Origin: Bythopirellula sp.
GTDB taxonomy: Bacteria; Planctomycetota; Planctomycetia; Pirellulales; Lacipirellulaceae
Direction of reading: 5' to 3'
Assembly: GCA_965216565.1 (NCBI GenBank)
Contig: OZ244170.1
Location: 1,984,001-2,048,000, forward strand
Length of the DNA stretch: 64,000 nucleotides
The position numbers and the translations under genes are program-made. Below, piece by piece: positions 28,295-62,266 of the stretch (position 1 is the first letter of the stretch; every line of letters starts with the position of its first letter). The notes under the pieces were generated by a model, which saw nothing but the letters and a program-made list of their open reading frames with translations, was not told where the DNA came from and did not search any database.

Positions 28295-28321
28295 AGCGCA
28301 TGGAAGTCTCTTTTTCGCGCA
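28295..28321 (+). promoter_or_regulatory. Putative XylR/AraC-type operator upstream of murQ
   Basis: AGCGCA (28295) and CGCGCA (28316), 21-bp period. TAGAAT at 28352. Confidence 0.7.
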
Positions 28322-28363
28322 TCTTCGCTATGTGTTTTACGAGGTGGCTACTAGAATCGAATT

Positions 28364-29263
28364 ATGCTTGAAAAGCTCGAAAACCTAACGACCGAAGGCA
28401 GAAATCCGGCCTCCGAGAATCTAGATAGCCTCAGTCCCTTGGACATCGTGCGTCTGATTAATTCGGAAGACGCCAAGGTTGCCGATGCAGTTGGACGCGA
28501 AGCGGAACCAATTGCCGAGGCGATCGAAGTGATTGCTCATCGATTGCAACACGGCGGACGTTTGATTTACGTTGGCGCCGGCACTTCTGGCAGGCTGGGA
28601 ATTCTCGACGCCGCGGAGTGTCCGCCCACCTTTAACTCCGATCCCTCGAAGGTGCTCGGATTAATTGCCGGTGGTCCCTCGGCAATGCTGAAAGCCGTGG
28701 AGGGTGCAGAAGACAATCCCGAATTGGCTGCCGAAGACCTACGAGAAGTGGGGCTCACCAGCCAAGACGTGGTCGTCGGAATCGCAACCAGTGGCCGCAC
28801 TCCTTATGTAATCGGGGCTCTCGAGTATGCCCGCAGCCAAGGTGCATTCCGGATTGGTCTCTCTTGCAACCGAGAAGCTACAATGCGAGCGCAGGCCCAG
28901 ATCAACATCGTCCCCGTTGTTGGGCCCGAAGTTGTCAGCGGCTCAACACGGATGAAAGCCGGCACCGCCACCAAGATGGTTCTTAACATGCTCACCACGG
29001 GTGCCATGGTAAGATTGGGCAAGACCTACGGGAACTTGATGGTGGATCTGCAGGCAACCAATATCAAGCTTACTGAACGATCTAAGCGTATCATTTGCTC
29101 GCTCACCGACCTATCGACGGAGAGTGCAGCCGAACTACTTACCGAGTGCGATGGTGAGCTCAAGACGGCAATCGTCGCTAACCGCAACGGCGTAGGGCCC
29201 GAGCAGGCGAGAGCTAAGCTCACCGATTCGAATGGCAAATTGAGAGAAGCGCTAGAAAACTGA
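28364..29263 (+). CDS. murQ: N-acetylmuramic acid 6-phosphate etherase
   Basis: GAGTSGRLG, ECPPTF, EGAED, GPEVVSGSTRMKAGTA, NLMVD. Confidence 0.97.
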   Translation: MLEKLENLTTEGRNPASENLDSLSPLDIVRLINSEDAKVADAVGREAEPIAEAIEVIAHRLQHGGRLIYVGAGTSGRLGILDAAECPPTFNSDPSKVLGLIAGGPSAMLKAVEGAEDNPELAAEDLREVGLTSQDVVVGIATSGRTPYVIGALEYARSQGAFRIGLSCNREATMRAQAQINIVPVVGPEVVSGSTRMKAGTATKMVLNMLTTGAMVRLGKTYGNLMVDLQATNIKLTERSKRIICSLTDLSTESAAELLTECDGELKTAIVANRNGVGPEQARAKLTDSNGKLREALEN

Positions 29264-29383
29264 TCGGAATGAGTTTAGGCTTGTTTCTTTCCAGCTCGCC
29301 ACTCTTCACGAATTATTCAATGGTGAGCGTTCTTACTCTAGCTTGCCAACTAGCAGCGGCTACTAGTTAGCAAGGGGCTTGGC

Positions 29384-30316
29384 GTGCAAGAAACCCTAAT
29401 TCTCGGCATCGATGGCGGCGGCACCAAGACCCTCGCTCTACTGGCGGCGGTTTCTTCTGCTGGAACCCCCAAAATTCTCGGCCGGTGTGCGGCGGGATCT
29501 ACCAATGTGAATGCTGTCGGCTGGGAAGAGGCTTTTTCCAACCTGCGAATAGCCAGTCAGGGAGCATGGGAAGCAGCGAATCGCGAAGCCACAACCGCTG
29601 AGATGGCCGTGTTGGCTCTCTCGGGTGCGGGAAGAGATTCGGCTCAGAAAAAAATCGCTGATTGGGTTACGAAAGAAGGTATCGCCAGCCGGGTGGAAGT
29701 GATTCACGATGCCGAAGCCGTCTTAATGGCCGGAACACCTGAAGGTTATGGGGTAGCTTTGATTGCAGGGACAGGTGCGGTAGCGCTGGCAGTCAACGAA
29801 TCGCAGGAAAGCAGCATCAGCGGGGGATGGGGATATTGGTTCGGCGACGAAGGCAGTGCTTTTTGGCTAGGGCAAGCTGCGTTGCGAGCCGTCTCGTTAG
29901 CCGCTGATGGGCGAGGTCCAGCGACATCGCTGGAAGCTCAACTTCTGGAACATCTTCAGATCGACAAACCCAGAGATTTACTCTCCGCCCTTTCCACCGA
30001 CAATAGTGTCCGGCAAGCAATCGCTTCGCTTGCAAGATCTGTGGTCGGTGCCGCAGAAACTGGCGACCACGTTGCTAAGGCGATTGTCGACGAGGGTGCG
30101 CTGCACCTGGCCAAGTTAGTCCACAGTTCTGCAGCGGCTGTCACGCTGGGACCAGATTTTTCCTTGGCCGTCGCCGGTGGAGTTCTCTGCGGCAGTCCCT
30201 ACGTCCAAGATGCACTAAGGCTAAAGCTCGGCGGGTTGGGGCTAGAACCACACCCGGTCGAAAGCGTTGCGGAGCCAGCACTCGGTACGCTGAATCTCGC
30301 GTGTCGCAAGCTCTAG
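29384..30316 (+). CDS. BadF/BadG/BcrA/BcrD-family GlcNAc/MurNAc kinase (MurK-like)
   Basis: GIDGGGTKT, IAGTG, GGWGYWFGDEGSA. Confidence 0.88.
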   Translation: MQETLILGIDGGGTKTLALLAAVSSAGTPKILGRCAAGSTNVNAVGWEEAFSNLRIASQGAWEAANREATTAEMAVLALSGAGRDSAQKKIADWVTKEGIASRVEVIHDAEAVLMAGTPEGYGVALIAGTGAVALAVNESQESSISGGWGYWFGDEGSAFWLGQAALRAVSLAADGRGPATSLEAQLLEHLQIDKPRDLLSALSTDNSVRQAIASLARSVVGAAETGDHVAKAIVDEGALHLAKLVHSSAAAVTLGPDFSLAVAGGVLCGSPYVQDALRLKLGGLGLEPHPVESVAEPALGTLNLACRKL

Positions 30317-30337
30317 GAAACCGGCAACTCCTCGCCC

Positions 30338-31414
30338 CTACTTGACGATTTGAGCAGTCACGCCGCCGACCACGGGAAAAGCACAGCCCGTTGTCTCGGG
30401 AACCGTCAACGCCTGATTCTCCTGATGTCGGACTGCCAGCCAGGCAAAACACTCTGCTTCTAAAGTATCTGGATTGAGGCCCATTTCTCGAACCGTGTGA
30501 ACTTCCCCAAACTTCTCACGCAACATACTCATAATCACAGGATGGTGGACGCCGCCTCCGGTGACATAGATCGTCGCTGGAATCTCAGGCAGTTTCTCAA
30601 CCGCTCGGAACACTGCTTCAACCGTTACCGCACACAGAGTCGTGGCCCCATCTTCGATGCTGAGGCCTGAGACATCGACGTGATCGAAGTCGTATCGGTC
30701 TGCTGCCTTTGGCAACGGCATCGAGAAGAACGGCGCTGCGAGCGCCTCTTCAATAGTCTCTTGGTCCGCTTTGCCTGCCAAGGCGAGCTCCCCATCTCGG
30801 TCGTGCGGCAAGTCTGCCATGGCCTGGGCCCACTCATCGATTAAGCCGCAACCGGGCCCTGTATCCCCAGCAATGATCTGACCCTTCTCACCTAGCCACG
30901 TGACATTTGCCACGCCACCGATATTCAGAACAAGCGTCGGCAGAATAGCTTCACTGAAGAGTGCTTTGTGGAAGATCGCCACCAAGGGCGCTCCTTGACC
31001 TCCGCAAGCCATATCGCATCGCCGGAAGTCTGTAACGATGGGAAGCCCAAATTCCTTGGCCAACATCCAAGGATTGCCAATCTGCAAGGTGATTCCCTCG
31101 CTGGGAATGTGTCGGACGGTATGGCCATGAAAGCCAACGACGGCAACTCGATCTTTCAGTTTCGGGTTCTCTTCGAGTAAAACCTTGACGGCTTGTACAT
31201 GAACGTCCGAGACGCTTTTCTCTAAGCGCAGAAGTTCAGTCGTCGGAACATCGAACTGCGAAGCCTCCTGCAAACTTGCACGGAGTTCATCTTCGTAGGG
31301 CACAGTAATCCCGCCGAAGAATTCAATTTTGTTCTGACCATCGGTCTCCAGCAACGCGGCATCCACACCATCGCAGGAGGTACCGCTCATGAGTCCTATC
31401 GCAATTTTTGTCAT
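30338..31414 (-). CDS. anmK: Anhydro-N-acetylmuramic acid kinase
   Basis: GLMSGTSCDGVD, GFHGHT, DFRR.D...GGQGAPL, NIGGVAN, DTGPG, EAECFAWLA. Confidence 0.95.
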   Translation of the reverse strand: MTKIAIGLMSGTSCDGVDAALLETDGQNKIEFFGGITVPYEDELRASLQEASQFDVPTTELLRLEKSVSDVHVQAVKVLLEENPKLKDRVAVVGFHGHTVRHIPSEGITLQIGNPWMLAKEFGLPIVTDFRRCDMACGGQGAPLVAIFHKALFSEAILPTLVLNIGGVANVTWLGEKGQIIAGDTGPGCGLIDEWAQAMADLPHDRDGELALAGKADQETIEEALAAPFFSMPLPKAADRYDFDHVDVSGLSIEDGATTLCAVTVEAVFRAVEKLPEIPATIYVTGGGVHHPVIMSMLREKFGEVHTVREMGLNPDTLEAECFAWLAVRHQENQALTVPETTGCAFPVVGGVTAQIVK

Positions 31415-31552: not shown

Positions 31553-31579
31553 TACGCAACATTCTCTCGTAAATGCGCA
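31553..31579 (+). promoter_or_regulatory. Putative operator between divergent anmK and the regulator
   Basis: TACGCA (31553) and TGCGCA (31574), 21-bp period. TATGCT at 31590. Confidence 0.7.
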
Positions 31580-31740: not shown

Positions 31741-32913
31741 ATGGAAGAAAACAATAGTTTGCGTCGTGTCGCTGTATTGGTAGAGACCGATGACAGCTGG
31801 GGTTCGGGCGTAATCCGCGGGATAGCAGATTACTCTCAGGATTACGGCCATTGGAATCTCCTCATCGACCCCCGCGACCACGAAGAACGCTTGGCCATCC
31901 CTGATCTTTGGGAAGGCGATGGCGTGATCGCGCGTATTGGCACGCGATTGCAGTTGAACCAAATCACTAATCGCAAACTTCCCACTGTGAATGTGGACAC
32001 CGTCTTCGAAGATGTGGAAGGCATCTACGATGTTGTGACCGATGACGAACAACGAGCCGAACTTGCTTTTGGTCACCTCAGGGATCGAGGATTTGAAGAA
32101 TTTGGATACTTTGCTCCGCCAAGCAAAAAATACTCCTCCAAGCGGGGCAAGTATTTTGTCGAAGTTGTCGAGAAGTCGGGGTTCAAGTGTCGCGAATACA
32201 AACCAGGATATCGTGTTGGCCGAAAGATTGGCTGGGAAGAGCAGCAGCGGCGAGTCAGCCGGTGGCTCAAATCCCTGCCATTTCCGGTAGCGATTCTCAC
32301 CGTCGATGCGTACCACGGCCGGCAACTCGTTGAAATTTGTAATATGAGTGGCATCCGCGTGCCCGATGAGGTCGCAATCCTGGCGGGAGATACTGACGAA
32401 CTAATGTGCGACGTCTGCACGCCTCCGCTCTCAAGTGTCGCGCTGGCGGGTCGAAAGATCGGCTTTGAAGCGGCAGCCCTGCTCGACCGATTAATGCACG
32501 ACCAAACGCCCGAATACAAATCCTACAAAGTCCCCCCCGAAGGGATTATCAGCAGACAGTCAACGGACATTTTGGCCATCGACGACGAGTCCGTCGTCAG
32601 AGCGCTGCGTTTTATCCAAACGCATGCTTTCCAGGACATCGTCGTCAAAGATATTCTGAACGAGGTTCCAGTTTCGCGGCGTAGCTTGGAGATTCAGTTC
32701 AAACACTATTTGGGGCGTTCGCCCGCGGAAGAAATCCGACGTGTCCGATTGGAAAAGGGCCAGGAGCTGTTGGCCCGAACCGACCTTTCCATCGGCGAAA
32801 TCGCAGTTGCCAGCGGATTCGCCAATTCCACCCGCTTCGGGGTGGCTTTTCGCAAACGATTCGGAATCACTCCACTAGCATATCGAAAGCAACTACAGCG
32901 ATCGAATTGTTGA
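31741..32913 (+). CDS. XylR-family transcriptional regulator (periplasmic-binding-protein-like sensor + AraC HTH)
   Basis: DGVIAR, VPDEVAILAGD, PPLSSV, RQSTD, SRRSLE...IRRVRL...IAVASGF...GITPLAYR. Confidence 0.92.
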   Translation: MEENNSLRRVAVLVETDDSWGSGVIRGIADYSQDYGHWNLLIDPRDHEERLAIPDLWEGDGVIARIGTRLQLNQITNRKLPTVNVDTVFEDVEGIYDVVTDDEQRAELAFGHLRDRGFEEFGYFAPPSKKYSSKRGKYFVEVVEKSGFKCREYKPGYRVGRKIGWEEQQRRVSRWLKSLPFPVAILTVDAYHGRQLVEICNMSGIRVPDEVAILAGDTDELMCDVCTPPLSSVALAGRKIGFEAAALLDRLMHDQTPEYKSYKVPPEGIISRQSTDILAIDDESVVRALRFIQTHAFQDIVVKDILNEVPVSRRSLEIQFKHYLGRSPAEEIRRVRLEKGQELLARTDLSIGEIAVASGFANSTRFGVAFRKRFGITPLAYRKQLQRSNC

Positions 32914-32930: not shown

Positions 32931-32957
32931 TGCGCAGAACGAAGAAAAAATTACGCA
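32931..32957 (+). promoter_or_regulatory. Putative operator upstream of PEP-CTERM gene 33132
   Basis: TGCGCA (32931) and TACGCA (32952). TAATAT at 32989. Confidence 0.7.
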
Positions 32958-33131
32958 CAATTCATTGCGCGATTTTTCACACTTGCGATAATATAAATTG
33001 AGAAATACAGATTCGCGGGGCAGGTCTGCTGCTGACATCCGCAGTGCTTGAGCCCCGCAACCTTGTGTATCCCCTTCGCTCGTCTTCAGCGATCTATCAA
33101 TTCAGAATTCACTCACTCTAAGGAGCATCTA

Positions 33132-34259
33132 ATGCATCGCAATCTTGTTCGTTTCGCGCTATCAGCCGCCGTCCTCATAGTCGGCGTACAAGCACATGGT
33201 CAGGTCATCGTCGATGAAGACTTTGAATCCTATGCAAACGATGCTGCTATGCATGCTGCGTGGGCTCCTTCGGCGTCGCCGCTCAACTCATTTTTGATCG
33301 ACCCCAACTTTCCAGGCGATCCCAATAACCCTTATGGAGTTCTTCCCGCAAAGGGCGGCCTAGATGGTCAGGCAGTATTTTATGATGGGGTCGCCGGTGG
33401 CCAGAACACTTGGCAAACGCCATTTGCAATTGGACCTTCTGCAACACAAACCGTCGAGGTAAGCGTCGACATCGGCCACGACCTGGAGAATTCCAACAAG
33501 CGGCACTCACTCGGATTGAGAAATGTTGGGGCTGGCACAACCAATATCATCGAACTCGGGTTCTATAACGATTTCGCCCCACTTCCTTCTGATCCTAATA
33601 GTCCCAATTTTATTCCGTTCGGTTACCGAACTGTACTGTTCAACAACACAACCAACTGGCAATCCTTTCAAACTCTGTCACCAAGTATCGATAGCGTATT
33701 CGAATTGTCGCTGGCCAACGACGGGACTCCTGCCTTCCACCGGTTTGGTGCGATCATCGATCCCAACAGCATCACCTTCACCTTAGATTTGTTCGCTGAC
33801 GGCGTGATTAGCTCCGCTGCAGCAGACTTCAATGGTGACGATCGTGTGGATGGACTGGACTTTCTCATTCTGCAAGAGAATTTTGGGTTTACAGAAACTG
33901 ATCCTAACAATGGCCGACCCGATGGCGACGCTAACCGCGATTTCGCTGTAGACTCGGCTGACCTGGCCCTTTGGGAAAAAGAATACGGAACCATTGTCGG
34001 CGTAACCCCAGGATTCGATGCGATGGATGTCGTGAATGCACAGGTCATCCTGGACCCTAATGGAGTCGCATTCAATAACATTCGCTTCGGAGGTCCCTCA
34101 GGCATTACCTCCGCTAGTCCTTTCGCTGCTTTCGATAATATTTTGCTCGAGGTGAACGGCGCACCGGTAGAACTCAACGCGGTGCCCGAGCCCTCCACGG
34201 CAATTTTGGCTCTCTTGGCTGGACTAGTTGTTTGGAGAGGCCGTAAGAGCCTTACCTAA
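33132..34259 (+). CDS. Non-catalytic PEP-CTERM protein with internal dockerin-like module, paralog of 36233
   Basis: AAGGAG RBS, signal peptide, EDFESY, ADFNGDDRVDGLDFL, VPEP tail. Confidence 0.8.
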   Translation: MHRNLVRFALSAAVLIVGVQAHGQVIVDEDFESYANDAAMHAAWAPSASPLNSFLIDPNFPGDPNNPYGVLPAKGGLDGQAVFYDGVAGGQNTWQTPFAIGPSATQTVEVSVDIGHDLENSNKRHSLGLRNVGAGTTNIIELGFYNDFAPLPSDPNSPNFIPFGYRTVLFNNTTNWQSFQTLSPSIDSVFELSLANDGTPAFHRFGAIIDPNSITFTLDLFADGVISSAAADFNGDDRVDGLDFLILQENFGFTETDPNNGRPDGDANRDFAVDSADLALWEKEYGTIVGVTPGFDAMDVVNAQVILDPNGVAFNNIRFGGPSGITSASPFAAFDNILLEVNGAPVELNAVPEPSTAILALLAGLVVWRGRKSLT

Positions 34260-34288
34260 GAGACGTCCACCGAAGAGTTCTTAGCTTT

Positions 34289-34335
34289 GCCCGCTTCGCG
34301 GTACGGGGCAGACCGTGAAGCGGGTTTCTTCTTTT
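34289..34335 (+). terminator. Intrinsic terminator-like hairpin
   Basis: CCCGCTTCGCGGT-ACGGGGCAG-ACCGTGAAGCGGG followed by TTTCTTCTTTT. Confidence 0.7.
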
Positions 34336-34364
34336 CCGATTATGAATTCTTTTAGGAACAGTCG

Positions 34365-35963
34365 ATGAAGAGGCAACATTCATTACTTGTAGGTGCCTGC
34401 TTTCTACTGCTTGGCATGTCCCAGGCTTACGGTCAATTCGGCGCTATTGGCGACATCAACGTCACCGGTTCGGGGCTTGTCCCCACCGAAAGCGACTACG
34501 TCCCGAACGTGGTCAAATGCGAGAATGGCTTGGCTAGTTTCGAAGCCCTCAAGGCCCAAGCCGTCGCTGCACGTACTTTCGCCTACTACAAGATGGACCA
34601 ACAAGGCTTTATTAACGATGGCACCGGTGATCAGGTCTACAGCTGCTCTGGTTCCGCCGGCACGATTCACCACGAAGCCGCCCAAGCCACCGAGGGCGAA
34701 ATCCTTTGGGTGCGAGATACGGTGGGCGTCCAATCGAATGTTCTGATTGCGTCCTTCTATGTTGCGGGAGCAATCCCGTCGGGAGCATTCGACATCAACA
34801 GCCCAGGCGTGATCGTCGACCCAGGCGATCCCGATCCTACCAGCACCGAGCAATGGGTGACCTACACCTACGCCAACGGCGACACGGCCGGCAACAACTT
34901 GGGCACGCCACTCGGTTTTCAGGGAACTCCAGCCAATCCCAACTGGCCCAATCGCGGAGCAAAGAGCCAAAACGGAGCCGATTTTCTCTCTGACAATAGC
35001 GTCTCCTACATCGATATTTTGAAATATTATTACGGGGCCGACATCCAGTTACGCACCGCGCTGACTGCCGGCTCGGGCGAGCAATTCTCGCTGAAAACGT
35101 TGGTCGATTTCGACGACTACACCGGCTCCATCGATCCCACCATCGACGGACACGAGGGCACTTTCCACCGATCGCCAACTTTCTCTGGCAGCACGACGGC
35201 CAACATCTCGGCATCCACCGCAGACAGAAGCTCTGCCGAATCGTTCAGCGGCAGCCATTCGCAGCTGATTGATATCGTCTACGACGAAGCCTCGGGAACC
35301 GACTTTTTCCTCCGGCACCTGTCTGGAGCCCGCTACGGATTCCTCGGCGGCGGAACTAACGCTGCGGAGAAGATTGACAATCTGCAATTTGAAGCCATTG
35401 GTTCGGTTGGCTTCTGGCTAAAAACCGACGACCCTGGACTCACCGTCTCGATTGCCATGGACGATCCTGGCACCGGCGATCGAGGGATTCCCAAGGCGGT
35501 CATCGCTGACAACCAATGGCACAAGTATCAATGGTTCCTCGATGACAACGACGAGTGGGAAGCCTGGATCGGAGCGGGCGATGGTCAACTCGGCACCACA
35601 AACGTCTCGATCGACTCGATTCATTTCGAGGGAGCAAGCGACGCGCAGATCTACCTAGACGATGTGTTCTGGGATCCTCAAGCAGTCTTTGTGCCACTGA
35701 TCCCAGGTGACTTCAATGGAGATGGAACAGTTGGAGCGGCCGACTTACCACTTTGGGAAACCGGTTATGGCACTTCGAGTGGCGCTCTGATTGGCAATGG
35801 CGATGCCAACGACGACGGGCGAGTCGATGGCACAGACTTCCTCATCTGGCAGGAAAACCTGGGCATGAGTAGCACACCCCCTTTAGCTGCGGTACCAGAG
35901 CCCTGTGCCGCGATGCTCTCCTTGGTAGCAGTTAGCTTGCTCGGTTGCTTCCGAAGCAGGTAG
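34365..35963 (+). CDS. SpoIID/LytB-domain (lytic transglycosylase-like) protein with unannotated binding domain, dockerin-like repeats and PEP-CTERM tail
   Basis: YVPNVVKCE, EALKAQAVAARTFA, DQVY, SQNGA, YIDILKYYY. VPEP tail. Confidence 0.85.
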   Translation: MKRQHSLLVGACFLLLGMSQAYGQFGAIGDINVTGSGLVPTESDYVPNVVKCENGLASFEALKAQAVAARTFAYYKMDQQGFINDGTGDQVYSCSGSAGTIHHEAAQATEGEILWVRDTVGVQSNVLIASFYVAGAIPSGAFDINSPGVIVDPGDPDPTSTEQWVTYTYANGDTAGNNLGTPLGFQGTPANPNWPNRGAKSQNGADFLSDNSVSYIDILKYYYGADIQLRTALTAGSGEQFSLKTLVDFDDYTGSIDPTIDGHEGTFHRSPTFSGSTTANISASTADRSSAESFSGSHSQLIDIVYDEASGTDFFLRHLSGARYGFLGGGTNAAEKIDNLQFEAIGSVGFWLKTDDPGLTVSIAMDDPGTGDRGIPKAVIADNQWHKYQWFLDDNDEWEAWIGAGDGQLGTTNVSIDSIHFEGASDAQIYLDDVFWDPQAVFVPLIPGDFNGDGTVGAADLPLWETGYGTSSGALIGNGDANDDGRVDGTDFLIWQENLGMSSTPPLAAVPEPCAAMLSLVAVSLLGCFRSR

Positions 35964-36069
35964 CCGTAGGTCAGGCAAGTGTGCCCAAACTGAGATCGCC
36001 TTCAGCCGTGAAGGGAGGCTGTCCGTGCCCCCAGAGGCAGTATTTACAGGCATATCAGGGTTTGCAGAG

Positions 36070-36096
36070 TGCGCAAAGTGGCGAAACTATTGCGCA
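36070..36096 (+). promoter_or_regulatory. Putative operator upstream of PEP-CTERM gene 36233
   Basis: TGCGCA (36070) and TGCGCA (36091). TATCCT at 36127. Confidence 0.75.
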
Positions 36097-36232
36097 AGAA
36101 TCGTTGCAAACTTCCGCGGTCCATTTTATCCTAGGAGATATGGGGAGGGGGTTCCGCTTGTAGGGACACCTGGTCAAATCCTTATCACCAACCTTCTTAT
36201 TCGTCGTTCTTTGACTGACAGGAGTAGTTCTA

Positions 36233-39643: not shown

Positions 39644-39843
39644 TCTGAGTGTGCTCCGAAAGCGAGAGAAAATGAGAGAGACAGTCCTCAAGGACAATCT
39701 GCAGGCAACTCTATTCATACCTATTCTATCCGCCAGCTGAATTACCGACAACAAGAAGCGGTCTGCCCGAGACAACCTTTGCTCTGTTAGCCTCTACGCG
39801 ATCGGTCCCGTCCAATAAGTCCCTTGGCACTATAGATGGTTCC

Positions 39844-41014: not shown

Positions 41015-41057
41015 CCGAACCTATTTTTTTCACACTCCTACCCGGAACCCTCAAGCT

Positions 41058-42587: not shown

Positions 42588-42600
42588 CAATAGGATCAAC

Positions 42601-51546: not shown

Positions 51547-51561
51547 GGACACACATCGCCA

Positions 51562-53262: not shown

Positions 53263-53360
53263 CGTCCTGCCAACCACGAATAGATCAGAAAAAACACGAC
53301 CAACGACTGTCCTTTACCAGCAATTCATGGTCACAAGAAAACCAAACTCTCAAACAAAAA

Positions 53361-54608
53361 ATGATCAAACGCAATCGTAGCACAGTCTCGCTGAGCACGT
53401 CATTACTTGTGGCTTTCCTAGCGACGTCGCTTCCGAACTGCCGTCTGCACGCCGAGGAAGCAGGCCGCGGGCCTGTGGTGCTCACAGACAAAGCTCGCCA
53501 ACTCCACACACGGGCGCTGGTGGTTGATGGCCATAACGACTTGCCTTGGGAATTGCGGGCCCAAGGCTCGCTCTCTTTCGAACGGCTCGACTTATTGAAA
53601 CCAATCGAAACACTCCACACCGATATTCCCCGCCTGCGGCAGGGAGGTGTCGGAGCCCAGTTCTGGTCAGTCTATGTGCCTGCCAGCACGGCTTACGATG
53701 GCACAGCATTGGTGGCGACGCTGGAGCAAATCGAACTGATCCACGCCATGATCGACCGTTACCCCGAAACATTTGAATTGGCTTTAACGGTCGACGACAT
53801 CCAGCGCATCCACTCTGCCGGCAAAATCGCTTCGCTGCTTGGCGTGGAAGGGGGCCACTGCATCGAAAATTCTCTGAATGTCCTCAATCAGCTTTATCGC
53901 CTAGGTGCTCGGTACATGACGCTGACACACTCCGATTCGCTCGACTGGGCCGACTCCGCGACGGACGAGCCCAAAAGCGGCGGCCTCAGCCAGTTTGGGG
54001 AAGAAGTGGTACAGGAGATGAACAAGCTTGGCATGCTGGTCGATCTTTCGCACGTCTCCGACGATGCCATGAAAGATGCGATTCGCGTTACCAAGGCACC
54101 GATCATCTTTTCGCACTCTTCGGCAAGAGCCATCGCCGACCATCCCCGCAATGTGACCGACGAAGTGCTCAAGCTCACTCGCGACAACGGCGGAGTTGTC
54201 ATGGTCAACTTCTATTCAGCCTACGTCGTACCCAGTGCCGCGAAGCGCAGTTACGACCGTCTTAAGAAAGAGCAAGAACTAAAGAAAACGCTCGACGACG
54301 TCGCCGTCAGGGCTGCACTGCGAAAGTGGGAAGCTGGCCGCAAGATGGAACCCGGCACCATTCACGACATGATCGACCATATCGACCACATCGTCCAAGT
54401 TGCCGGCATCGATCATGTCGGTTTGGGTTCCGACTACGATGGCGTGAGCGTGTTGCCCAAGCAAATCGAAGACGTCAGCAGCTACCCCTACATCACACAA
54501 GCACTCCTCGATCGTGGCTACAACGAGGACGAGATCCTGCAAATCCTGGGCGGCAACTTGGTGCGGGTGATGCGACAGGCCGAGCAAGTGGCTAAGGAGC
54601 TGCAGTAG
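53361..54608 (+). CDS. Membrane dipeptidase (peptidase M19), secreted
   Basis: DGHND, GVEGGH, TLTH, DLSH, SHS, HPRN, GSDYDG. Confidence 0.92.
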   Translation: MIKRNRSTVSLSTSLLVAFLATSLPNCRLHAEEAGRGPVVLTDKARQLHTRALVVDGHNDLPWELRAQGSLSFERLDLLKPIETLHTDIPRLRQGGVGAQFWSVYVPASTAYDGTALVATLEQIELIHAMIDRYPETFELALTVDDIQRIHSAGKIASLLGVEGGHCIENSLNVLNQLYRLGARYMTLTHSDSLDWADSATDEPKSGGLSQFGEEVVQEMNKLGMLVDLSHVSDDAMKDAIRVTKAPIIFSHSSARAIADHPRNVTDEVLKLTRDNGGVVMVNFYSAYVVPSAAKRSYDRLKKEQELKKTLDDVAVRAALRKWEAGRKMEPGTIHDMIDHIDHIVQVAGIDHVGLGSDYDGVSVLPKQIEDVSSYPYITQALLDRGYNEDEILQILGGNLVRVMRQAEQVAKELQ

Positions 54609-56364
54609 CTTCTTGCAGTTCTCGGCTGCCACTGCGGCTCCCGCTCTCCGCTTTCCGCTTTCCGTACCCCACTTTTCCCTGCACGCGAGGATCGTGCACG
54701 CCGACCATCTGCCCACTGTCGTCCAGACCAATAGCCTGGGTCACACCGCTGGAAGAAATCGTCTTTATCTGGTGGCCCAGCTTTTCCAGCCCTGAAACGA
54801 TTGTCGGGGACGCTTTGCGTTCGATCAGCACGTGGTCCGGCTTCCATTGATGATGAAACCTGGCTCCCGTGATCGCATCTTCTAAGCTTTGCCCGCGGTC
54901 CAAGGTACGCACCAGTGCCAACAGCACTTGGGTAATGATTTTCGGCCCACCGGCTGCGCCCACCGTCAGCACAGGTTGGTCGTCAGAATCGAGCACGATC
55001 GTGGGGCTCATGCTGGAGAGTGGACGTTTCCCAGCTGCTACCGCGTTGTTCTCTGCGCCAATTAACCCAAAGGCATTTGGCACGCCCGGCTGGCTAGAGA
55101 AGTCGTCCATCTCGTTGTTCAATACCAACCCCGTACCAGGAACAATTACCTTTGAGCCAAAGGTCGTATTCACCGTGGCGGTGATCGCTACCCAGGTGCC
55201 GTCGCTATCGGCGGCCGCGATGTGCGTCGTGTGCCGCTCGAACAGCGCTGCGCTGAACTTCAGGGGGTCGCCTTGGCCGGGAACTGGGGTCGCCGCAGCG
55301 GGATCGATCCTTCCAGCCAGTTCTTTGGCATAGTCTTCCGACACCAGCCCTGCGGGGACATCTGCATAGTCGGGATCGCCCAGCCAATATGCCCGATCGG
55401 CAAATGCCAACTTCATCGCCTCGATTATGATGTTCGTTGCGCGAACTTGATCCTGCTGAAACTCCTGACTCAAATCGAACGTCTCCAGGATGTTCAATAT
55501 CTGGGCAACATGCACACCACCTGAGCTGGGTGGCGGGAAGCCGAGAATCTTCCATTCACGGTAGCTGCTAATAATCGGCTGCCGCTGGACCGGATGGTAA
55601 TTGGCAAAGTCATCTGCAGTGACAATGCCGCCATTCTCGGCCATCCAGCCGGCGATCGTCTCTGCGAACTCACCTCGGTAGAACCAGTCGGGGCCTCGAT
55701 CCGCAATTTGGCGGTAAGTTCTCGCCAGGTCGGGCTGCCGCAGGATCTCGCCCTCTGTGTACACACTGCCGTCGGGTTTCAGCAACGCTGCTTTACTGCC
55801 TGGAAACCGGGCCAGGGTATCCGCCGTTCTGGCAAGCTTTCCGGCATAGCTGCGATCGATGGCAAAACCCTTCTCGGCAATATCAGCCGCAGGCCGCAGA
55901 AGATCGGGCAAGGTTAGTTCACCGGAAGTTTTGAGAGCCAGCTGATAGGCGGCCAGCGCGCCGGGCACACCAACAGCAAGTGGCCCCGTGGTGCTTAGCT
56001 GAGGATCGGCGACGCCGTCGCGGAGATACATATCATGCCGTGCAGCCGCAGGCGCCATTTCACGCCCATCAATGGCAACGATGCTTCCATCCGCCTCGCG
56101 AATCAGAATGAAGCAACCACCGCCCAAACCGGAATTATGATTGTCTACCACTCCCAAAGTAATTGCCGCAGCGATGGCGGCATCCACAGCATTGCCACCT
56201 CGCTCGAAGGCCGCTACACCAGCGTCCGTCGCATGCGGCTGAACGGCTGCTACAACGCATTCACCAGCTGCAGTTTTCTGCCCTTGCCAGACAAAGCTAC
56301 AAACAAGCAGCCAAGCAAAAATTGGGGACGTGGAAAGTAAAGCGCTGCGGTCGAAATTGGTCAT
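54592..56364 (-). CDS. ggt: Gamma-glutamyltransferase
   Basis: GGNAVDAA, DGRE, PPPSSGG, TTH (catalytic Thr), NNEMDDF, RPLSSMSP, GAAGG. Confidence 0.93.
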   Translation of the reverse strand: MTNFDRSALLSTSPIFAWLLVCSFVWQGQKTAAGECVVAAVQPHATDAGVAAFERGGNAVDAAIAAAITLGVVDNHNSGLGGGCFILIREADGSIVAIDGREMAPAAARHDMYLRDGVADPQLSTTGPLAVGVPGALAAYQLALKTSGELTLPDLLRPAADIAEKGFAIDRSYAGKLARTADTLARFPGSKAALLKPDGSVYTEGEILRQPDLARTYRQIADRGPDWFYRGEFAETIAGWMAENGGIVTADDFANYHPVQRQPIISSYREWKILGFPPPSSGGVHVAQILNILETFDLSQEFQQDQVRATNIIIEAMKLAFADRAYWLGDPDYADVPAGLVSEDYAKELAGRIDPAAATPVPGQGDPLKFSAALFERHTTHIAAADSDGTWVAITATVNTTFGSKVIVPGTGLVLNNEMDDFSSQPGVPNAFGLIGAENNAVAAGKRPLSSMSPTIVLDSDDQPVLTVGAAGGPKIITQVLLALVRTLDRGQSLEDAITGARFHHQWKPDHVLIERKASPTIVSGLEKLGHQIKTISSSGVTQAIGLDDSGQMVGVHDPRVQGKVGYGKRKAESGSRSGSRELQEATAAP

Positions 56365-56578
56365 TGCGTTTCTTGAGCCCATAGTTTGTCGGCAGAGGAA
56401 AATATAAATGTAAGGCAAATGCTAGTTTGCTTGCTAAGAATCTAGCAGAGATTCTGTCCCTGAGGGAAAGAGAACTACGGAAGGTGTATCGGTCCGCTCT
56501 CGAATGACAGCCTTGACTCCGCAAGCTTCGGAGGACATTCTGACACTCTGCAGACATAGTGGAATCTTTCCATCCATT

Positions 56579-56627
56579 TGCGCAGGATTTTCACTTAGTA
56601 TGCGCATTTCCGTGATCTTTTCTCGCA
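56579..56627 (+). promoter_or_regulatory. Putative operator (three boxes) between divergent ggt and the lipoprotein-DUF1559 genes
   Basis: TGCGCA (56579), TGCGCA (56601), CTCGCA (56622); periods of 22 and 21 bp. Confidence 0.65.
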
Positions 56628-56666: not shown

Positions 56667-57185
56667 ATGGAGGAGGTGGCTAACTTTACGGGGACATGTC
56701 TCTTGCAACGCGTCAGCCACAAACTAACAATTACTTATCTCAATACTTTCAAGTTCTTGGCGCTAACCTGTGCCTTGATCTGCTGCCAAATCGGTTGCAA
56801 TGCAACGCAAGAAACCTCGGGGCGGGCCGCGTCCGAAGCCCCGCTACGTTTCTTGGGACGATTATTGATTGGGTATTCGCGAGACCATCGTGGTGCGAAT
56901 CCCGGCTCGAATGACGAATTTCTGGAGTACCTCGAGGAAAACAGGTCTCAGTGGACAGACGATGCATCGGCTTCAGCCGCAGACCTATTGGTCTCGCCTT
57001 ACGATGGCAAACCGATGGTGATCGTCCCGAAAAACCAGACCGGTCCCGCGGGACCTACCGGCTACAAGATCATTGCCTTTGAAAGCGAAGGCTCTGGTAC
57101 CAAACGCTGGACCATCAACGAGCGTGGCGGCATTGTTGAGTTAGAAAACCAAGAACTGAGTCAATTATTTCCCAAACTGTTGTGA
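56667..57185 (+). CDS. Hypothetical lipoprotein preceding DUF1559
   Basis: Hydrophobic stretch and QIGC lipobox-like motif. Stop overlaps the next start. True start uncertain. Confidence 0.6.
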
Positions 57186-58315
57186 GTTACGCCATGGAAC
57201 AAGCGAAACTACAAGCCAATACACCGACGAAACGTGCGTTCACCCTCGTAGAACTTCTGGTGGTGATTGCGATTATCGGCGTCCTGGTTGCGTTGTTACT
57301 GCCTGCTGTACAAGCTGCCCGCGAAGCCGCTCGCCGGGCTCAATGCAAGAATCAACTCAAGCAAATCGGGCTCTCCTGCCAGAACTTTGTGGGCGCGAAA
57401 GAAGTATTTCCTACGGGCGGAGACGCCATATTTCCGGACATCAGTGATTATGTCGAGGGGGGAAAGCCGCTGGGCCCCGAAAAGCAGGGCCTGAGCTGGG
57501 CATACCAGATACTCCCCTACCTGGAACAAGGCCCTTTGTTCGGCATTACGACCCAGCGCGCACTCCAGGAAGTCACTGTCCCGATGTACTACTGTCCTTC
57601 ACGGCGTAGCCCGGTTGTGTCTGAGGCAATCATCCATGCCGGCCGCAGCGTTTCTCTTATGGACTACGCGGGTGCGATCCCCTGTGGGTATCCGTCCTAC
57701 GATGACTGGGTCGACGGCACGAACAGAATCTTCCCTGAAGACTCTCCGAACAGAACGCGAGGCGGCGGTACATTTCCCACGAACAGAGAACTGTTTTTCG
57801 GTGGGAATAGTGGCTCCGCGAACATCTTAGAGGTACCGAATAATGAAGTCTATCTAGGCGTGATAACACGCACGCCCTCGAAAATTGTGCCTGCAGGACG
57901 CGGCAATCCCGTACCAACCCACAGGAGGCTGGATAAAGTTACGCTTCCGGTCTCTATGGCAATGATTACTGATGGCACTAGCAATACGATGCTGGTCGCC
58001 GAGAAGTTTATCCGTCCCGACTTGTACGACGGCGGTAGCTACTCCGACGACCAAGGCTTTTCTGATGGCTGGGACCCCGACGTCATGCGGTCAACCTGTG
58101 TAAGACCGCTGCAAGATACACAGACGGGAACGCCGGACGATAAGTATGGTTTCGAAGCAGACGTGATTTACTTCGGGTCGGCCCATCCTGGAGGATTCAA
58201 CGCCGTCTTTGCCGATGGTTCCGTCCATACAATCAACTATGAAGTGAACTCAGATTTATTCGATCGCATTGGAGACCGACAAGACGGAGAATTGACAGAC
58301 TTGGGTCAGTTGTAG
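57182..58315 (+). CDS. DUF1559 prepilin-type protein
   Basis: [34 protein letters not shown]. Confidence 0.95.
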
Positions 58316-58360
58316 CAAAGGGCTGTCAACGCAATTTCCCGCTAAATATAAGCTTAGAAT

Positions 58361-58387
58361 TGCGCAACGAAGTATCACAACCGCGCA
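58361..58387 (+). promoter_or_regulatory. Putative operator upstream of PEP-CTERM gene 58720
   Basis: TGCGCA (58361) and CGCGCA (58382), 21-bp period. Confidence 0.65.
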
Positions 58388-58719
58388 GCTATTATCGCTC
58401 AGAGAGGCCAGACTGTCGAACTTCAAATGGCTTTTCCGTAAATGTCATCGGAAACCGCCAAGTTACTGATAAGATTCTTGAATAGAAATCCATAAGTTAT
58501 TAGTGTAGGAGTAACTTGCTGGCGGGCGAATTAGGCACTTTTTTCACCCCAAGCACACTTTTCGTGATGCCGATTTTTCTTATCGCCGGCAACAATTGAT
58601 TAACAACTTTGACCGTAGGAGTTTCTTGCTTTATTGACTTTTGTCTTGGCAGCTAACGCATTTACTTTGCCTTGCTTGCTTTGGAATTCATTTTGTGTTT
58701 TGCAGATGGGAGTTGTCTT

Positions 58720-60354
58720 ATGTTAGACCATCGGAAGTTTTTCTTAATTGCACTAGGACTCACGCTGGCGATCGCGCCTGCAGTGACTCAAGCTCAGATC
58801 CTCTCGGACGGCGATTTCAATGCCGTCGATTACACGTCCAGTACGGCAATCAGTTCGTCCGACAGCGGATGGCCTGGGCCTCCCGCGGTCTCCGACATTC
58901 GTTACAACGTCGACTACGGTAATCTCGACATCTTTGGCGATGGTTTCATCGTCGCCAGCTTACCGGAAGCCCCCCGATCCGATCCCAACGATACAGCCAC
59001 GACGGGTCTATTCCTTTCGGCCAACAATAACTCCTTTGCCACACCAACCTGGTCGATGGCTGCGGTTACTCCTAATGGCCTTAACGTTGGTACTGGTACA
59101 GCCACGCCTAATTTTAAGATGACCGTGGATGTATTCCATAGCGCCGGCACAGGCACACTGGATCCGAATGGTGTGAACTCTGGGCGAAGTGGTACGACCA
59201 ACTACTCCCATCTAGGAATTGGGCAAGCTAACACCACGGTTCAGGTGGAAGACTTGAATGCTGATCCGAACAATGGAAATCAAGCTGGCGGGCAAGGCCT
59301 GGGCCTCCTGATCACCGCCGATGGTGGTGCTGCAGAAGATTACATGCCTGTCTACTCTGGTGCTGTTTACCGTGATCGTACCGGTGGTGCCACCTTTGGA
59401 ACTACCTACCGAGGCGTTCCAGATCCTAATGGAAACGCGATTTCCTATGGTAAATCTGGCTTGGCCAATCAAGTTCTTAATCAGTACTGGCTCGACCAAG
59501 GTCTCGGATTCGTGATCGACGATGCTGGCGACCCTAGCTTTGATCCCAACACGGGCCTGCGGCTCAACCGGTTTACTGGTAATGGAACAAGCTTTACTCC
59601 AGACCCAGCTACTGTCGGCAGCTATGATCTCGACGATCCCAATGTCGTGGTCAAACGTGTCTATGGTGATGTATTAACCGAGTTCACGGCACAACCCACG
59701 CACCTGAGTGGCGATTTTGAAACTATCAATGGACCTCTAGGTGATAACAGCATCGCCGGTGTCGGCATCCTAGGTAACACGTGGAGCACCCACGAGTTAT
59801 ATTGGATTGACGGTGTGTTCACCTATGTCATGGACGGTGCAGTCCTGCTCGAAATTGAGCCTGACTACGATCCGAATAACCTTGCCAATGGAAACGTTTA
59901 CGACGATTTCAGTGACTCGGGTTCGGTTGTCCTTGGTTTCTTCGATCGATTCAATTCGGTTGCTTTGAGCCCAGATGGTGCCAACTTTGTAATTTACGAC
60001 AACCTGACTGTAGAAGCAGCAACTTCGGGCGATGCTCCCGACCTGCTCGAATTCTACGAAAGTGAAGGCTTCCTACTTTCCAATGCCGATAACGCTGACT
60101 TCGACGGAGACGGTGTTGTCTCTGGCTTGGACTTCTTGATCTGGCAGCAGAATGTTGGTGCCACGGGTCAAACCGATAACTCCCTTGGCGATGCCAACGG
60201 AGATGGCGTAGTAGGTAGTGCCGACTTGGCCATCTACGAAGGTCAGTACGGTACGTCGCCTCTCTCGGCGAATGTAGCTGCTGTGCCCGAACCTATGTCT
60301 GTAAGCCTCATGTTGCTGGCTTGCGGTTGCATGGGCATTCGCCGACGTCGGTAG
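58720..60354 (+). CDS. PEP-CTERM surface protein of unknown function with dockerin-like repeats
   Basis: GGGAG RBS, signal peptide (TQA-Q), ADFDGDG, GDANGDG, VPEP...RRRR. Confidence 0.82.
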   Translation: MLDHRKFFLIALGLTLAIAPAVTQAQILSDGDFNAVDYTSSTAISSSDSGWPGPPAVSDIRYNVDYGNLDIFGDGFIVASLPEAPRSDPNDTATTGLFLSANNNSFATPTWSMAAVTPNGLNVGTGTATPNFKMTVDVFHSAGTGTLDPNGVNSGRSGTTNYSHLGIGQANTTVQVEDLNADPNNGNQAGGQGLGLLITADGGAAEDYMPVYSGAVYRDRTGGATFGTTYRGVPDPNGNAISYGKSGLANQVLNQYWLDQGLGFVIDDAGDPSFDPNTGLRLNRFTGNGTSFTPDPATVGSYDLDDPNVVVKRVYGDVLTEFTAQPTHLSGDFETINGPLGDNSIAGVGILGNTWSTHELYWIDGVFTYVMDGAVLLEIEPDYDPNNLANGNVYDDFSDSGSVVLGFFDRFNSVALSPDGANFVIYDNLTVEAATSGDAPDLLEFYESEGFLLSNADNADFDGDGVVSGLDFLIWQQNVGATGQTDNSLGDANGDGVVGSADLAIYEGQYGTSPLSANVAAVPEPMSVSLMLLACGCMGIRRRR

Positions 60355-60388
60355 TGTTGTTGGTTTAGCAATTTTGTGAAACCTTACC

Positions 60389-60430
60389 ACCCGCCTCGCG
60401 GCTCGGGGCAGACCGCGGGGTGGGTTTTTT
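60389..60430 (+). terminator. Intrinsic terminator-like hairpin
   Basis: ACCCGCCTCGCGG-CTCGGGGCAGA-CCGCGGGGTGGGT followed by a T run. Confidence 0.75.
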
Positions 60431-60602
60431 CTAACCCTTAGATAAAAAGCATTCGGATTCAGGCTAGTTATTAAGACATCGCAAGAATTATTTTCCGAAT
60501 GCAATTTCCGATGCTTTCCGTCTTCTATCTGACAACTGCAACCAAAGAGCAGCACAGCGTAGAGACGGGGAAACTTTCTTAGACAATTAATCTCCGTTAC
60601 CT

Positions 60603-61712
60603 ATGGAATTAGTAGCGATGTCCGTATCTCAAATCTCTCGCAAGAGAATCCACGACGCTTTCACGCTCGTAGAATTGCTGGTTGTAATCGCCATCATTGG
60701 CGTTCTGGTGGCCCTCCTGCTACCTGCCGTGCAGGCAGCACGCGAAGCGGCCCGTCGTATTCAATGCCAAAATAACGTCCGCAACTTGGCACTGGGCGTA
60801 CTCAACTATGAGAATGCCCGCGGTGTGATGCCCCCGTCGAGTCAGATGCTAGGGGCTAAGACGCGGTTACCTGGTGTAACGTCACCTCGATTGCAAATGT
60901 ACACCTCCCAAGCGCGGGAACGACTAAGTTGGATTTACCAAATCCTTCCCAATATCGAGCAGCAAGCTCTCTATGATCAGTTCGACCCCAACCTAACGGT
61001 GTTTAACCAAGACGTTAATTCGCGTCCAGAAGAAGCTCAACCTGCCGTGCTACTTTGTCCGAGCGACGATACAACCGGCACTTTCTATGAGCAAAGTAAT
61101 CGGAGACTCGCGAAAGGGAATTACGCCGCCTATGCTTCTCCAGAACACGCTACCAGCTCAACTATTTGGCCGGGCGCACTGATCCAAGAGCCTCAGCCGC
61201 TACAGCGATTTACCGACGGCACGTCCAGTACCGTGATGTTGGCTGAAGTGCTAACTCGTGAAGAACCGACAGACCAACGAGGTGCCTGGGCGGTGGCTTA
61301 CATTGGTTCTTCCATTCTCGCACTCGACCTCCATGGCCAAGGAGTGGGAACGGGCAATATTGCTGAACAGGGCCGACAAGTTCCCTACTACCCTGTTGTT
61401 TCGGGCCTCCAACTGCAAGATGCGCTCACGCCAAATCTTCAAACCGGCAGTCTCACCGCCGACGAAATTCTTCAATGCGAAAACACCGCTGATGCCGACC
61501 TGCAGCGAATGCCCTGCCGCACCCACGGTTCTACGCAAAACTACACCGCTGCCCCTCGCAGCAACCATACCGGCGGAGTCAATGCTGCCAATGTGGATGG
61601 GAGTGTTCGCTTTCTCTCCGACGACATTGAACCTCCCGTGCTAGGCGTTCTAATCCACATTAGCGATGGATTGCTTCAGGACAGCATTCCAGTCATCAGT
61701 GGCAATTTATAG
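60603..61712 (+). CDS. DUF1559 prepilin-type protein
   Basis: [34 protein letters not shown]. Confidence 0.95.
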   Translation: MELVAMSVSQISRKRIHDAFTLVELLVVIAIIGVLVALLLPAVQAAREAARRIQCQNNVRNLALGVLNYENARGVMPPSSQMLGAKTRLPGVTSPRLQMYTSQARERLSWIYQILPNIEQQALYDQFDPNLTVFNQDVNSRPEEAQPAVLLCPSDDTTGTFYEQSNRRLAKGNYAAYASPEHATSSTIWPGALIQEPQPLQRFTDGTSSTVMLAEVLTREEPTDQRGAWAVAYIGSSILALDLHGQGVGTGNIAEQGRQVPYYPVVSGLQLQDALTPNLQTGSLTADEILQCENTADADLQRMPCRTHGSTQNYTAAPRSNHTGGVNAANVDGSVRFLSDDIEPPVLGVLIHISDGLLQDSIPVISGNL

Positions 61713-61788
61713 CCATCGAATCTTGAAAGAAAAACACTTGCTCCTGACCTGTCGTTAGGTTGTTCGGGCCCAGAAGGAATCGCACTCC

Positions 61789-62163
61789 ATGAAACAATCG
61801 TTACCGGTCATTGCCTTGGGAATCGGAATCCCTCTTGTTTTGCTGAGCATTCTGTGGAGTTCAATTTTCCCCGCCAGCAATAGTTGGACGGAGGAGAAGT
61901 CCAAACGCATGACCGAACTAGCACTTCAGACTCAGCAGCTAATGTATAAGGTGGTGAAGGCGGAGAATAACGACCTCAAATCGGGTGAGAATCCTGCTGA
62001 AATCAACGAAAAGTACCGCGCATCGAAGAAGGAGCTGGAACAGCTTCAAAACGATTTCGAAACCCAGCGGGACAAACCCAGCACCATTGCCAGCTATCTT
62101 CGTTGGGCGGGGATCGCGTTGGTGATCGTAGGGGCGGGTGCGAATTTTGTCGAACGGGGCTAG
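61789..62163 (+). CDS. Small membrane protein (TM - coiled coil - TM)
   Basis: AAGGA RBS, two hydrophobic segments flanking a helical region. Confidence 0.65.
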   Translation: MKQSLPVIALGIGIPLVLLSILWSSIFPASNSWTEEKSKRMTELALQTQQLMYKVVKAENNDLKSGENPAEINEKYRASKKELEQLQNDFETQRDKPSTIASYLRWAGIALVIVGAGANFVERG

Positions 62164-62195
62164 AGCTTGCCAGGAGCCCCGAAATCTCACCATTC

Positions 62196-62266
62196 TGCGC
62201 ACCCCGGCAACCTCTCCGCGCAACCGTAGGGCAATTTCTTTCCCAAAAACCTGCTCTACGTATAAT
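62196..62266 (+). promoter_or_regulatory. Putative operator and -10 element upstream of the amidase
   Basis: TGCGCA (62196) and CGCGCA (62217). Perfect TATAAT at 62261. Confidence 0.65.

Follow-up and report, generated by a model that had tools for sequence, protein, structure and literature searches.

Bacteroidota polysaccharide utilisation loci combine clustered hydrolases, surface binders and transporters with a sugar-sensing activator that acts through a repeated operator, and the MurR protein of E. coli is an RpiR-family repressor controlling murQ and a small regulon. E. coli XylR (PDB 4FE4/4FE7) occupies two direct repeats that adjoin the -35 box, needs xylose for DNA binding and activates, and one dimer binds two separate duplexes (accessible part of PMC3561964). 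Tannerella forsythia salvages N-acetylmuramic acid (MurNAc) because it cannot make this sugar (abstracts of 10.1101/2021.12.02.470905 and PMC10465942). Here we analyze a stretch of 64,000 nucleotides from Bythopirellula sp. (GCA_965216565.1, contig OZ244170.1, positions 1,984,001 to 2,048,000; "the window"), which from 19 kb on is, judged from its gene content, a peptidoglycan-catabolism cluster. Its spacers carry a paired-box motif, CGCA-N17-CGCA, which we predict with a probability of roughly 85% to be the operator by which an AraC-family, XylR-type protein encoded at 31741 activates a peptidoglycan-catabolism regulon.

The locus resembles each of the known systems in part. As in Bacteroidota utilisation loci, hydrolases, predicted surface binders, transporters and a regulator for one substrate are co-located, but the substrate is peptidoglycan, the part of surface proteins falls to PEP-CTERM/dockerin and pilin-like DUF1559 proteins, and no SusC or SusD Pfam family was found among 44 window proteins. 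As with MurR, a regulator that would respond to a MurNAc-derived signal lies beside murQ; in contrast to MurR, the locus yielded a single regulator, of the AraC type and not of the RpiR family, and the predicted activator spans surface hydrolysis, uptake, and sugar and peptide catabolism. Full-length homology, the two-domain build, direct repeats by the -35 box and divergent promoters are shared with E. coli XylR, and by analogy the mechanism is one already known from that protein. The differences from XylR are the box sequence, about 20 candidate sites in one genome instead of two operators, peptidoglycan targets, forward, backward and shifted placements, and a paralogue with a variant box. 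T. forsythia likewise uses foreign peptidoglycan via NamZ (NamZ1/NamZ2), a MurNAc kinase (MurK) and MurQ-type steps, whereas no such regulator or PEP-CTERM/DUF1559 set appears in the abstracts cited above. We found no paper on the motif, the regulator clade, the peptidoglycan regulon or the DUF1559/PEP-CTERM link in a literature search that left subscription journals mostly uncovered and supplements outside.

The motif is a real, conserved and directional promoter element. Nine hexamer pairs exactly 21 bp apart, reported by an earlier, sequence-only reading of the window, were all recovered at their coordinates. The window contains 14 matches to CGCA-N17-CGCA (the site at 36070 being counted on both strands), versus 0-6 at every other spacing between 5 and 39. 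The pattern is present in 9 of the 17 spacers of the peptidoglycan part, for which 2000 dinucleotide shuffles gave a mean of 0.14 and a maximum of 2, and, as the same reading had stated, it is absent from the spacers of the starch part before 19 kb (0 of 7). Four further matches lie in coding DNA. These were taken as chance occurrences; three of them (20603, 41204, 57292) score below 12 on the refined matrix described below and the fourth (2451) falls below the listing threshold of 17.

Over the whole genome, a single 5.2-Mb contig, the enrichment of the 8-base pattern is mild (333 matches, versus 173-288 at other spacings). GCGCA-N16-GCGCA has 16 matches that are intergenic by crude in-house calls of open reading frames (ORFs), versus 0-5 at other spacings. 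The genome-wide signal resides in this longer form and not in the plain 8-base pattern. A refined matrix was trained on 32 sites from relatives only; at a score of at least 20 it finds 11 intergenic and 0 coding sites in this genome, and six shifted periods yield 0-2 intergenic sites.

Footprinting around the orthologous regulator gene in 12 relatives identified 45 non-coding box pairs at a period of 21, versus 0-7 at periods 12-33. Aligned in the direction of their downstream genes, the sites give the consensus TGCGCA-N5-GA(G/T)A-N6-TGCGC. The core TGCGC is invariant, the final A of the box is less fixed, and position 16 is A in 27 of 27 sites. TGCGCA had been named as the best box and is indeed the consensus box; it is a palindrome, however, so that the strand of CGCA is uninformative and only the central GA(G/T)A element gives direction. 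CGCA on the + strand was therefore rejected as the conserved directional unit. The strand assignments of the sequence-only reading changed accordingly. The pair at 47039, described as inverted, faces the + strand gene at 47303 (24.5 forward versus -5.1 reverse), and among the other eight sites, all placed on the + strand, those at 28295, 31553 and 58361 face the - strand. Each of the eight had also been placed upstream of a + strand gene, but the spacers of 28295, 31553, 39844 and 56601 are divergent and the sites in them lie upstream of a - strand gene as well. Seven of the nine window sites score 21-28 on the relatives-only matrix. In some relatives, three or four boxes stand in a row at the 21-bp period (positions 1149-1219 of locus L016 and 12022-12071 of L013), hinting at longer arrays of bound protein.

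The sites stand at characteristic distances from predicted promoters. In the following, +n is the distance from the start of box 2 to the start of the predicted sigma-70-type -10 hexamer, and the start sites in all counts are predicted from sequence. The three TAnnnT hexamers that had been seen behind second boxes are TAGAAT (28352), TAATAT (32989) and TATCCT (36127). Among 59 hand-collected sites, TAnnnT occurs at +36/37 in 27 cases in the direction preferred by the matrix, versus 5 in the opposite direction; across 37 loci, which partly overlap the training genomes, it occurs in 46 of 57 sites. With a -10 hexamer at this distance, box 2 ends 7-8 bp ahead of the -35 position, at which the boxes match only in part. 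Going by these predicted promoters, the spacing is activator geometry of the class II type.

Promoters with other spacings keep the helical phase. The -10 hexamer of the DUF1559 operon at 39992 is located at +56 here and at +56 to +60 in four relatives. At the backward murQ site TAnnnT begins at +36 in seven of seven genomes, while the amidase promoters (n = 8) have TATAAT at +43/44 in four cases and at +52 to +55 in three, and TATTAT at +43 in one. For the backward site of the GH25 gene, the hexamer is at +66 to +68 in 3 of 5 cases. The murQ ATG follows the -10 hexamer after 6-7 nt in all seven genomes (6 nt here, window positions 28352-28366), so this gene looks leaderless. The site of the dgcN-like gene (47039) is +37/39 from a -10 hexamer in other genera (L075, L079, L080, L084); in this genus it has no fixed close -10, with +55 to +58 in some genomes, and the SSF/murQ site shows a similar shift between genera.

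The site at 31553 would serve two promoters. The -10 hexamer of anmK (TAAGCT, 31522-31517) is at +36 from it, and the site overlies the -35 and spacer region of the likely promoter of the regulator gene (-10 TATGCT, 31590). On the regulator side, the -10 hexamer is found at +16 in three of three loci of the regulator clade and at +13/14 in five of five paralogue loci. Since the site facing anmK covers the promoter of the regulator gene, the regulator would repress itself, and the layout would fit anmK activation combined with self-repression. The regulator start proposed by the ORF finder, 31573, falls inside box 2, and homologues start near the ATG at 31741, which is likely the true start.

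The predicted regulon extends well beyond the window. Seven of the 11 strong sites are window sites already mentioned. Of the others, one precedes the first DUF1559 gene beyond the window's edge, and three are located before an operon of a VanX-like D-Ala-D-Ala dipeptidase and an NlpC/P60 protein (genome position 1172639), before a PEP-CTERM gene without assigned function (1723839), and before a GH25 muramidase gene with a PEP-CTERM-like tail (3141652). Sites of lower score (13-19) stand in front of nagB, a further PEP-CTERM gene, two additional DUF1559 genes, a second copy of anmK and a pair encoding an oxidoreductase and an S66 LD-carboxypeptidase. Several matches at 12-16 have no evident link, and the nulls reach the same range. 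Three sites found with a box-only matrix, at 4178797 (putA), 4727047 and 5144571 (ppdK), were lost with the refined matrix. For twelve further genes that neighbour the locus in relatives, this genome has no site.

The assignment of the motif to the 31741 protein, as the sequence-only reading had proposed, is supported by footprinting, distant targets found blind, co-occurrence, control loci and co-variation of recognition helices and boxes. For co-occurrence, the regulator clade (clade A) was defined by an E-value of at most 1e-110 and compared in 99 genomes of the family Lacipirellulaceae (Gxxx and Lxxx denote genomes and loci in the comparison sets). It is present in 76 of the 99 genomes, representing 20 of 23 genera. 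At least three exact pattern matches were found in 71 of these 76 genomes, versus 4 of the 23 without a regulator match, and the mean number of matches was 5.8 versus 1.5 (1.6 versus 0.8 for a reversed-pattern control). Since the genomes are kin and, within the genus, murQ is lost together with the regulator, better controls were needed. In another family, G034 has a similar locus (murQ, namZ, SSF, anmK, dgcN-like, GGT, M19 and DUF1559 genes; GGT, gamma-glutamyltranspeptidase) without the regulator clade, and no site in 20 kb. G038 has murQ-SSF-namZ, no regulator clade and no site in the 20 kb examined. In G290, also from another family, regulator, locus and sites occur together. Six loci of more distant XylR paralogues have 0 non-coding sites. 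A search of 300 further genomes of the phylum, in which only 6 candidates per genome were scored, returned the regulator from 3 of them at an E-value of at most 1e-100.

Box sequences follow the recognition helices. A paralogue with 55% identity is encoded beside the second anmK in this genome; its first recognition helix is the same and its second differs. Its two sites have a central GGAAA; a matrix built for the paralogue gives them 32.7 and 35.6 and the first matrix 17.2 and 12.3, while every window site scores better on the first matrix. The paralogue likely reads this variant at the second anmK locus. Paralogues with 'YAGxTQFG' in the second helix-turn-helix (HTH2) have a central GAAA. 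Where the first helix reads '(A/T/G)RRQLER', box 1 is GTCGCA instead of TGCGCA in nine of nine loci, with +36 kept, and in SRR(Y/F)LE loci (n = 11) the anmK-facing box 1 is TGCGC in 10; the search behind these comparisons rewarded CGCA, GAAA and the -10 hexamer, leaving only the first two box letters free. We infer that the hexamer is recognised by the first helix and the central element by the second. Such helix-to-box reading is as expected for MarA-type binding (in part PMC3561964, as far as accessible).

The second locus (3144693-3162754 of the genome; L002, L003) under this paralogue contains an anmK-like gene below the cut-off, genes for two Gfo/Idh/MocA-type oxidoreductases, an SSF symporter and an FAD oxidoreductase, two GHL10 genes, and PEP-CTERM/dockerin and DUF1559 genes. 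A third XylR-type regulator (36% identity, other helices; 2438001-2458000, L011) is encoded among genes for dockerin, DUF1559 and chondroitinase-B-like proteins, and it lacks a TGCGCA site. Loci L094 and L096 from other families, with regulators of 42-45% identity and the first helix SRRSLEQRF, have TGCGCA-like pairs with a -10 hexamer at +36/37 in divergent promoters, and in L096 the XylR-type gene neighbours a dgcN-like gene.

The 31741 protein itself has the build of XylR-type activators, an N-terminal periplasmic-binding-protein domain of the LacI/GalR sugar-binding type and a C-terminal AraC domain with a double HTH (Pfam Peripla_BP_3, PBP1_XylR, HTH_18). It aligns to E. coli XylR (4FE4) over residues 8-383 (E-value 9e-51), and, with the start sites predicted, its putative operator of two direct repeats adjoins the -35 box as for such activators. 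In pairwise alignment, the xylose pocket residues Y18, D65, W135, R139, D219 and Q237 of the E. coli protein correspond to W20, G67, Y131, R135, D217 and L235. Four of these six contact positions are kept in kind, so the pocket would be a sugar pocket, without the sugar being named thereby. The other two positions differ (D65 to G67, Q237 to L235), and the targets (murQ, anmK, namZ, nagB, amidase, GH25 and VanX-like genes) are not xylose genes, so that neither pocket nor targets are those of a xylose regulon. Deduction of the effector from pocket residues was dropped, as the Gln237 change is common to unrelated paralogues. Because both paralogues are encoded divergently from anmK, the inducer would most likely be MurNAc or anhydro-MurNAc, as a free cell-wall amino sugar; we give this about an even chance.

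Several observations weigh against the assignment to the 31741 protein or against parts of it. Two of the nine window sites are weak (12.9 at 56601 and 5.0 at 62196). Four genomes (G063, G058, G108 and G081) have 3-5 pattern matches without a regulator match. Within the genus, seven of seven genomes without the regulator also lack murQ, so this co-occurrence does not single out the regulator. The helix and box changes represent one or two evolutionary events each in related genomes, and were found in a search with only two free box letters. Loss of the O3-contacting Gln237, being shared with unrelated paralogues, is no evidence for MurNAc. As one E. coli XylR dimer occupies two duplexes, tandem occupancy of the two boxes by the two domains is not guaranteed. 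Finally, G008 and G012 keep strong A-type sites without a clade-A orthologue, so that in these two genomes the reader must be the paralogue or some other factor. One of the two paralogue copies in these genomes is now located beside namZ-SSF-murQ and has probably taken over the A-type sites, which would make the central preference soft. No clear shift of these sites toward the paralogue consensus was seen by eye.

According to the proposed mechanism, a cell-wall amino sugar would bind the N-terminal domain of the 31741 protein. Two DNA-binding domains would then sit in tandem, 21 bp apart, with HTH1 on TGCGCA and HTH2 on GA(G/T)A, and the bound protein would recruit sigma-70 polymerase from box 2, just ahead of the -35 box. 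At other promoters it would act from a distance greater by two turns (+56 to +60) or from a backward site (+36, +43/44, +52 to +55, +66 to +68). Induced functions would include surface hydrolases, lectin-fold proteins, selected DUF1559 proteins and uptake, together with sugar catabolism (anmK, the kinase, murQ, nagB) and stem-peptide catabolism, resulting in feeding on peptidoglycan fragments.

The purpose of the regulon could be a different one, namely recycling of the own wall in growth or budding only, without feeding on foreign peptidoglycan. Planctomycetes have their own peptidoglycan (accessible part of PMC4432640), and anmK and the ampG-like, nagZ-like and S66 genes belong to the classic set for recycling. 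However, the SpoIID and GH25 hydrolases have signal peptides or PEP-CTERM-type anchors, the pathway ends in murQ and nagB and includes homologues for D-Glu and D-Ala-D-Ala catabolism, and 23 of the 99 family genomes have no regulator match. We favour foraging on foreign walls because of the anchoring at the surface, the catabolic nature of the end steps and the patchy distribution, and consider recycling alone unlikely. The recycling explanation bears only on what the regulon is for and does not conflict with the operator model.

It is very improbable that the same regulator acts mainly as a repressor that is released by the sugar. Its ligand domain is indeed LacI/GalR-like and could be used in a LacI-like way, the site at 31553 covers the regulator's own -35 and spacer region, and the second repeat reaches into the -35 box at many promoters. 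However, the sites are located at phased distances upstream of the -10 hexamer (+36/37, +43/44, +52-60, +66-68) and not over the -10 hexamer or +1, the -35 boxes match only partially, and E. coli XylR binds only with sugar and activates (accessible part of PMC3561964). We give similarly little credit to an unlinked factor that binds TGCGCA pairs, with the XylR-type gene merely co-inherited. The retained sites in G008 and G012, the four genomes with 3-5 matches but no regulator match, and the mostly joint loss of regulator and targets would suit such a factor. Against it, similar loci without the regulator (G034, G038) have no sites, the box sequence follows the regulator helices, the divergent promoter of the regulator has a site in both paralogues, and Pfam revealed no further regulator family in the peptidoglycan part of the window. 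That the paired palindromes form an RNA hairpin, terminator or repeat element has a negligible probability: the two boxes can pair and two sites lie 14-16 bp past a stop codon, but a hairpin, terminator or known RNA family was rejected on the folding z-scores of the nine sites (-0.65 to +1.44 versus shuffles) and 0 Rfam matches in the window, and what is conserved in the spacer is an asymmetric element, with sites upstream of the -35 box.

The predicted operators are distributed over the entire peptidoglycan cluster, in which gene identities were assigned with Pfam (44 window proteins) and NCBIfam cut-offs. The murQ and anmK genes, and nagB just beyond the window, are above these cut-offs, whereas the AmpG-, NagZ-, DgcN- and DgcA-like genes are below the curated values. 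The cluster also includes a NamZ fusion, an SSF symporter, an S66 LD-carboxypeptidase, amidase_3 and SpoIID proteins and two GHL10 genes. By Pfam, 24247..28122 (- strand) encodes the SSF symporter and a fusion of a beta-lactamase fold with a NamZ exo-muramidase. It is followed at 28364..31414 by murQ (+), a BadF-type sugar kinase gene (+) and anmK (-). The site at 28295..28321 (- strand, score 23.4) lies in the divergent spacer between SSF-namZ and murQ, facing the SSF gene and backward to murQ, and the site at 31553..31579 (- strand, 25.1) faces anmK. The regulator gene, encoding the sugar domain and double HTH of the likely motif binder, occupies 31741..32913 (+).

Three exported PEP-CTERM-type proteins are encoded at 33048..36985 (+): a lectin-like domain with dockerin, SpoIID with dockerin, and a stand-alone ConA-like beta-sandwich (36233-36985). 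The site at 32931..32957 (+, 23.7) is upstream of the first two, with the -10 hexamer at 32989 (TAATAT), and the equivalent promoter carries a site in the loci of nine relatives. The site at 36070..36096 (+, 27.7), upstream of the lectin-fold gene, is followed by the -35 box TTGCAA (36104) and the -10 hexamer at 36127 (TATCCT). Next, 37628..47023 comprises a GHL10 gene (-) and genes for DUF1559, GHL10, AmpG-like MFS, GNAT and GH3 NagZ-like proteins (+), the latter five preceded by the site at 39844..39870 (+, 21.4; TACAAT at 39921, +56). The site at 47039..47065 (+) lies upstream of the dgcN-like, dgcA-like and peptidase genes and has the same direction in eight relatives; the genes at 47303..56418 encode DgcN-like, DgcA/epimerase-like, beta-lactamase-fold/S11 carboxypeptidase, NhaC-type transporter and M19 dipeptidase proteins (+) and GGT (-). 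In the divergent spacer between GGT and ORF172-DUF1559, the weak site at 56601..56627 has no assigned strand (12.9 reverse, 9.0 forward); relatives have strong sites upstream of GGT. The last genes, at 56667..64000 (+), encode ORF172, DUF1559, a dockerin/PEP-CTERM protein, DUF1559, ORF124 and amidase_3, the last running off the window. The site at 58361..58387 (- strand, 21.0) is backward, upstream of the dockerin/PEP-CTERM gene at 58672, as it is in 2 of 3 relatives having one. The degenerate backward site at 62196..62222 (- strand, 5.0), upstream of the amidase_3 gene (TATAAT at 62261, +44), is conserved in position, and its counterparts in relatives score 20-25.

Genes at 19146-24250 (an M14 peptidase, two Gate-domain membrane proteins, S66 and a D-cysteine-desulfhydrase-like protein) have no site in the preceding 79-bp spacer; they nonetheless travel with the locus in relatives. 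The starch-type cluster at 855-19066 has the same module of PEP-CTERM, DUF1559, dockerin, hydrolase and transporter genes, with an extracytoplasmic function (ECF) sigma/FecR pair and without a TGCGCA site. The two clusters point to a shared surface module under exchangeable regulators.

The DUF1559 and the PEP-CTERM/dockerin proteins belong to the largest planctomycete families that lack an explanation (accessible parts of PMC4807772 and PMC2754498). The proposal that the motif ties them to cell-wall catabolism was borne out in so far as sites are present, but it does not extend to the family at large, as only 4 of 58 DUF1559-like genes have a site (score of at least 14) within 400 bp directly upstream. 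By gene order, three more DUF1559 genes are probably located downstream in site-bearing operons. The PEP-CTERM protein encoded at 36233 is predicted to be a ConA-like beta-sandwich (predicted local distance difference test score 91.5). Its model is nearest to calreticulin/calnexin lectin domains and accessory domains of hydrolases (Z 14.8-13.9, root-mean-square deviation 2.7-3.2, 166-177 residues, 10-13% identity), a flat list of matches, so that the fold suggests sugar binding by this protein and shows no function. The dockerin protein encoded at 33048 and its orthologues carry the same domain (34-47% identity). A search of the ESM Atlas with the PEP-CTERM domain returned only DUF6645 and unnamed clusters, and the accessible part of PMC11685898 mentions neither PF07596 nor pilin nor PEP-CTERM.

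The operator groups these 4 of 58 DUF1559-like genes and the lectin-fold surface proteins with murein enzymes, and so gives them a testable substrate. Tentatively, and at slightly less than even odds, most Lacipirellulaceae may possess an inducible machine for eating foreign walls, with one XylR-type MurNAc sensor, surface muramidases, a new family of PEP-CTERM lectins that bind peptidoglycan, and a small selection of pilin-like DUF1559 proteins, which together would capture and import fragments without SusC/SusD; the operator of each XylR paralogue would then label the substrate of DUF1559/PEP-CTERM modules throughout the planctomycetes. The paired helix and box changes provide a natural test of DNA reading by XylR-type proteins, for which a XylR-DNA structure was still needed according to the accessible part of the 2012 structure paper. 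A tight sugar-inducible promoter would serve as a genetic tool in this phylum. Regulator and sites are present in the cultured Bythopirellula polymerisocia Pla144, Lacipirellula limnantheis I41 and Adhaeretor mobilis HG15A2 (L112, L120, L122), and these carriers are predicted to respond to MurNAc or sacculi. This widespread aquatic family is predicted to turn over bacterial cell-wall debris.

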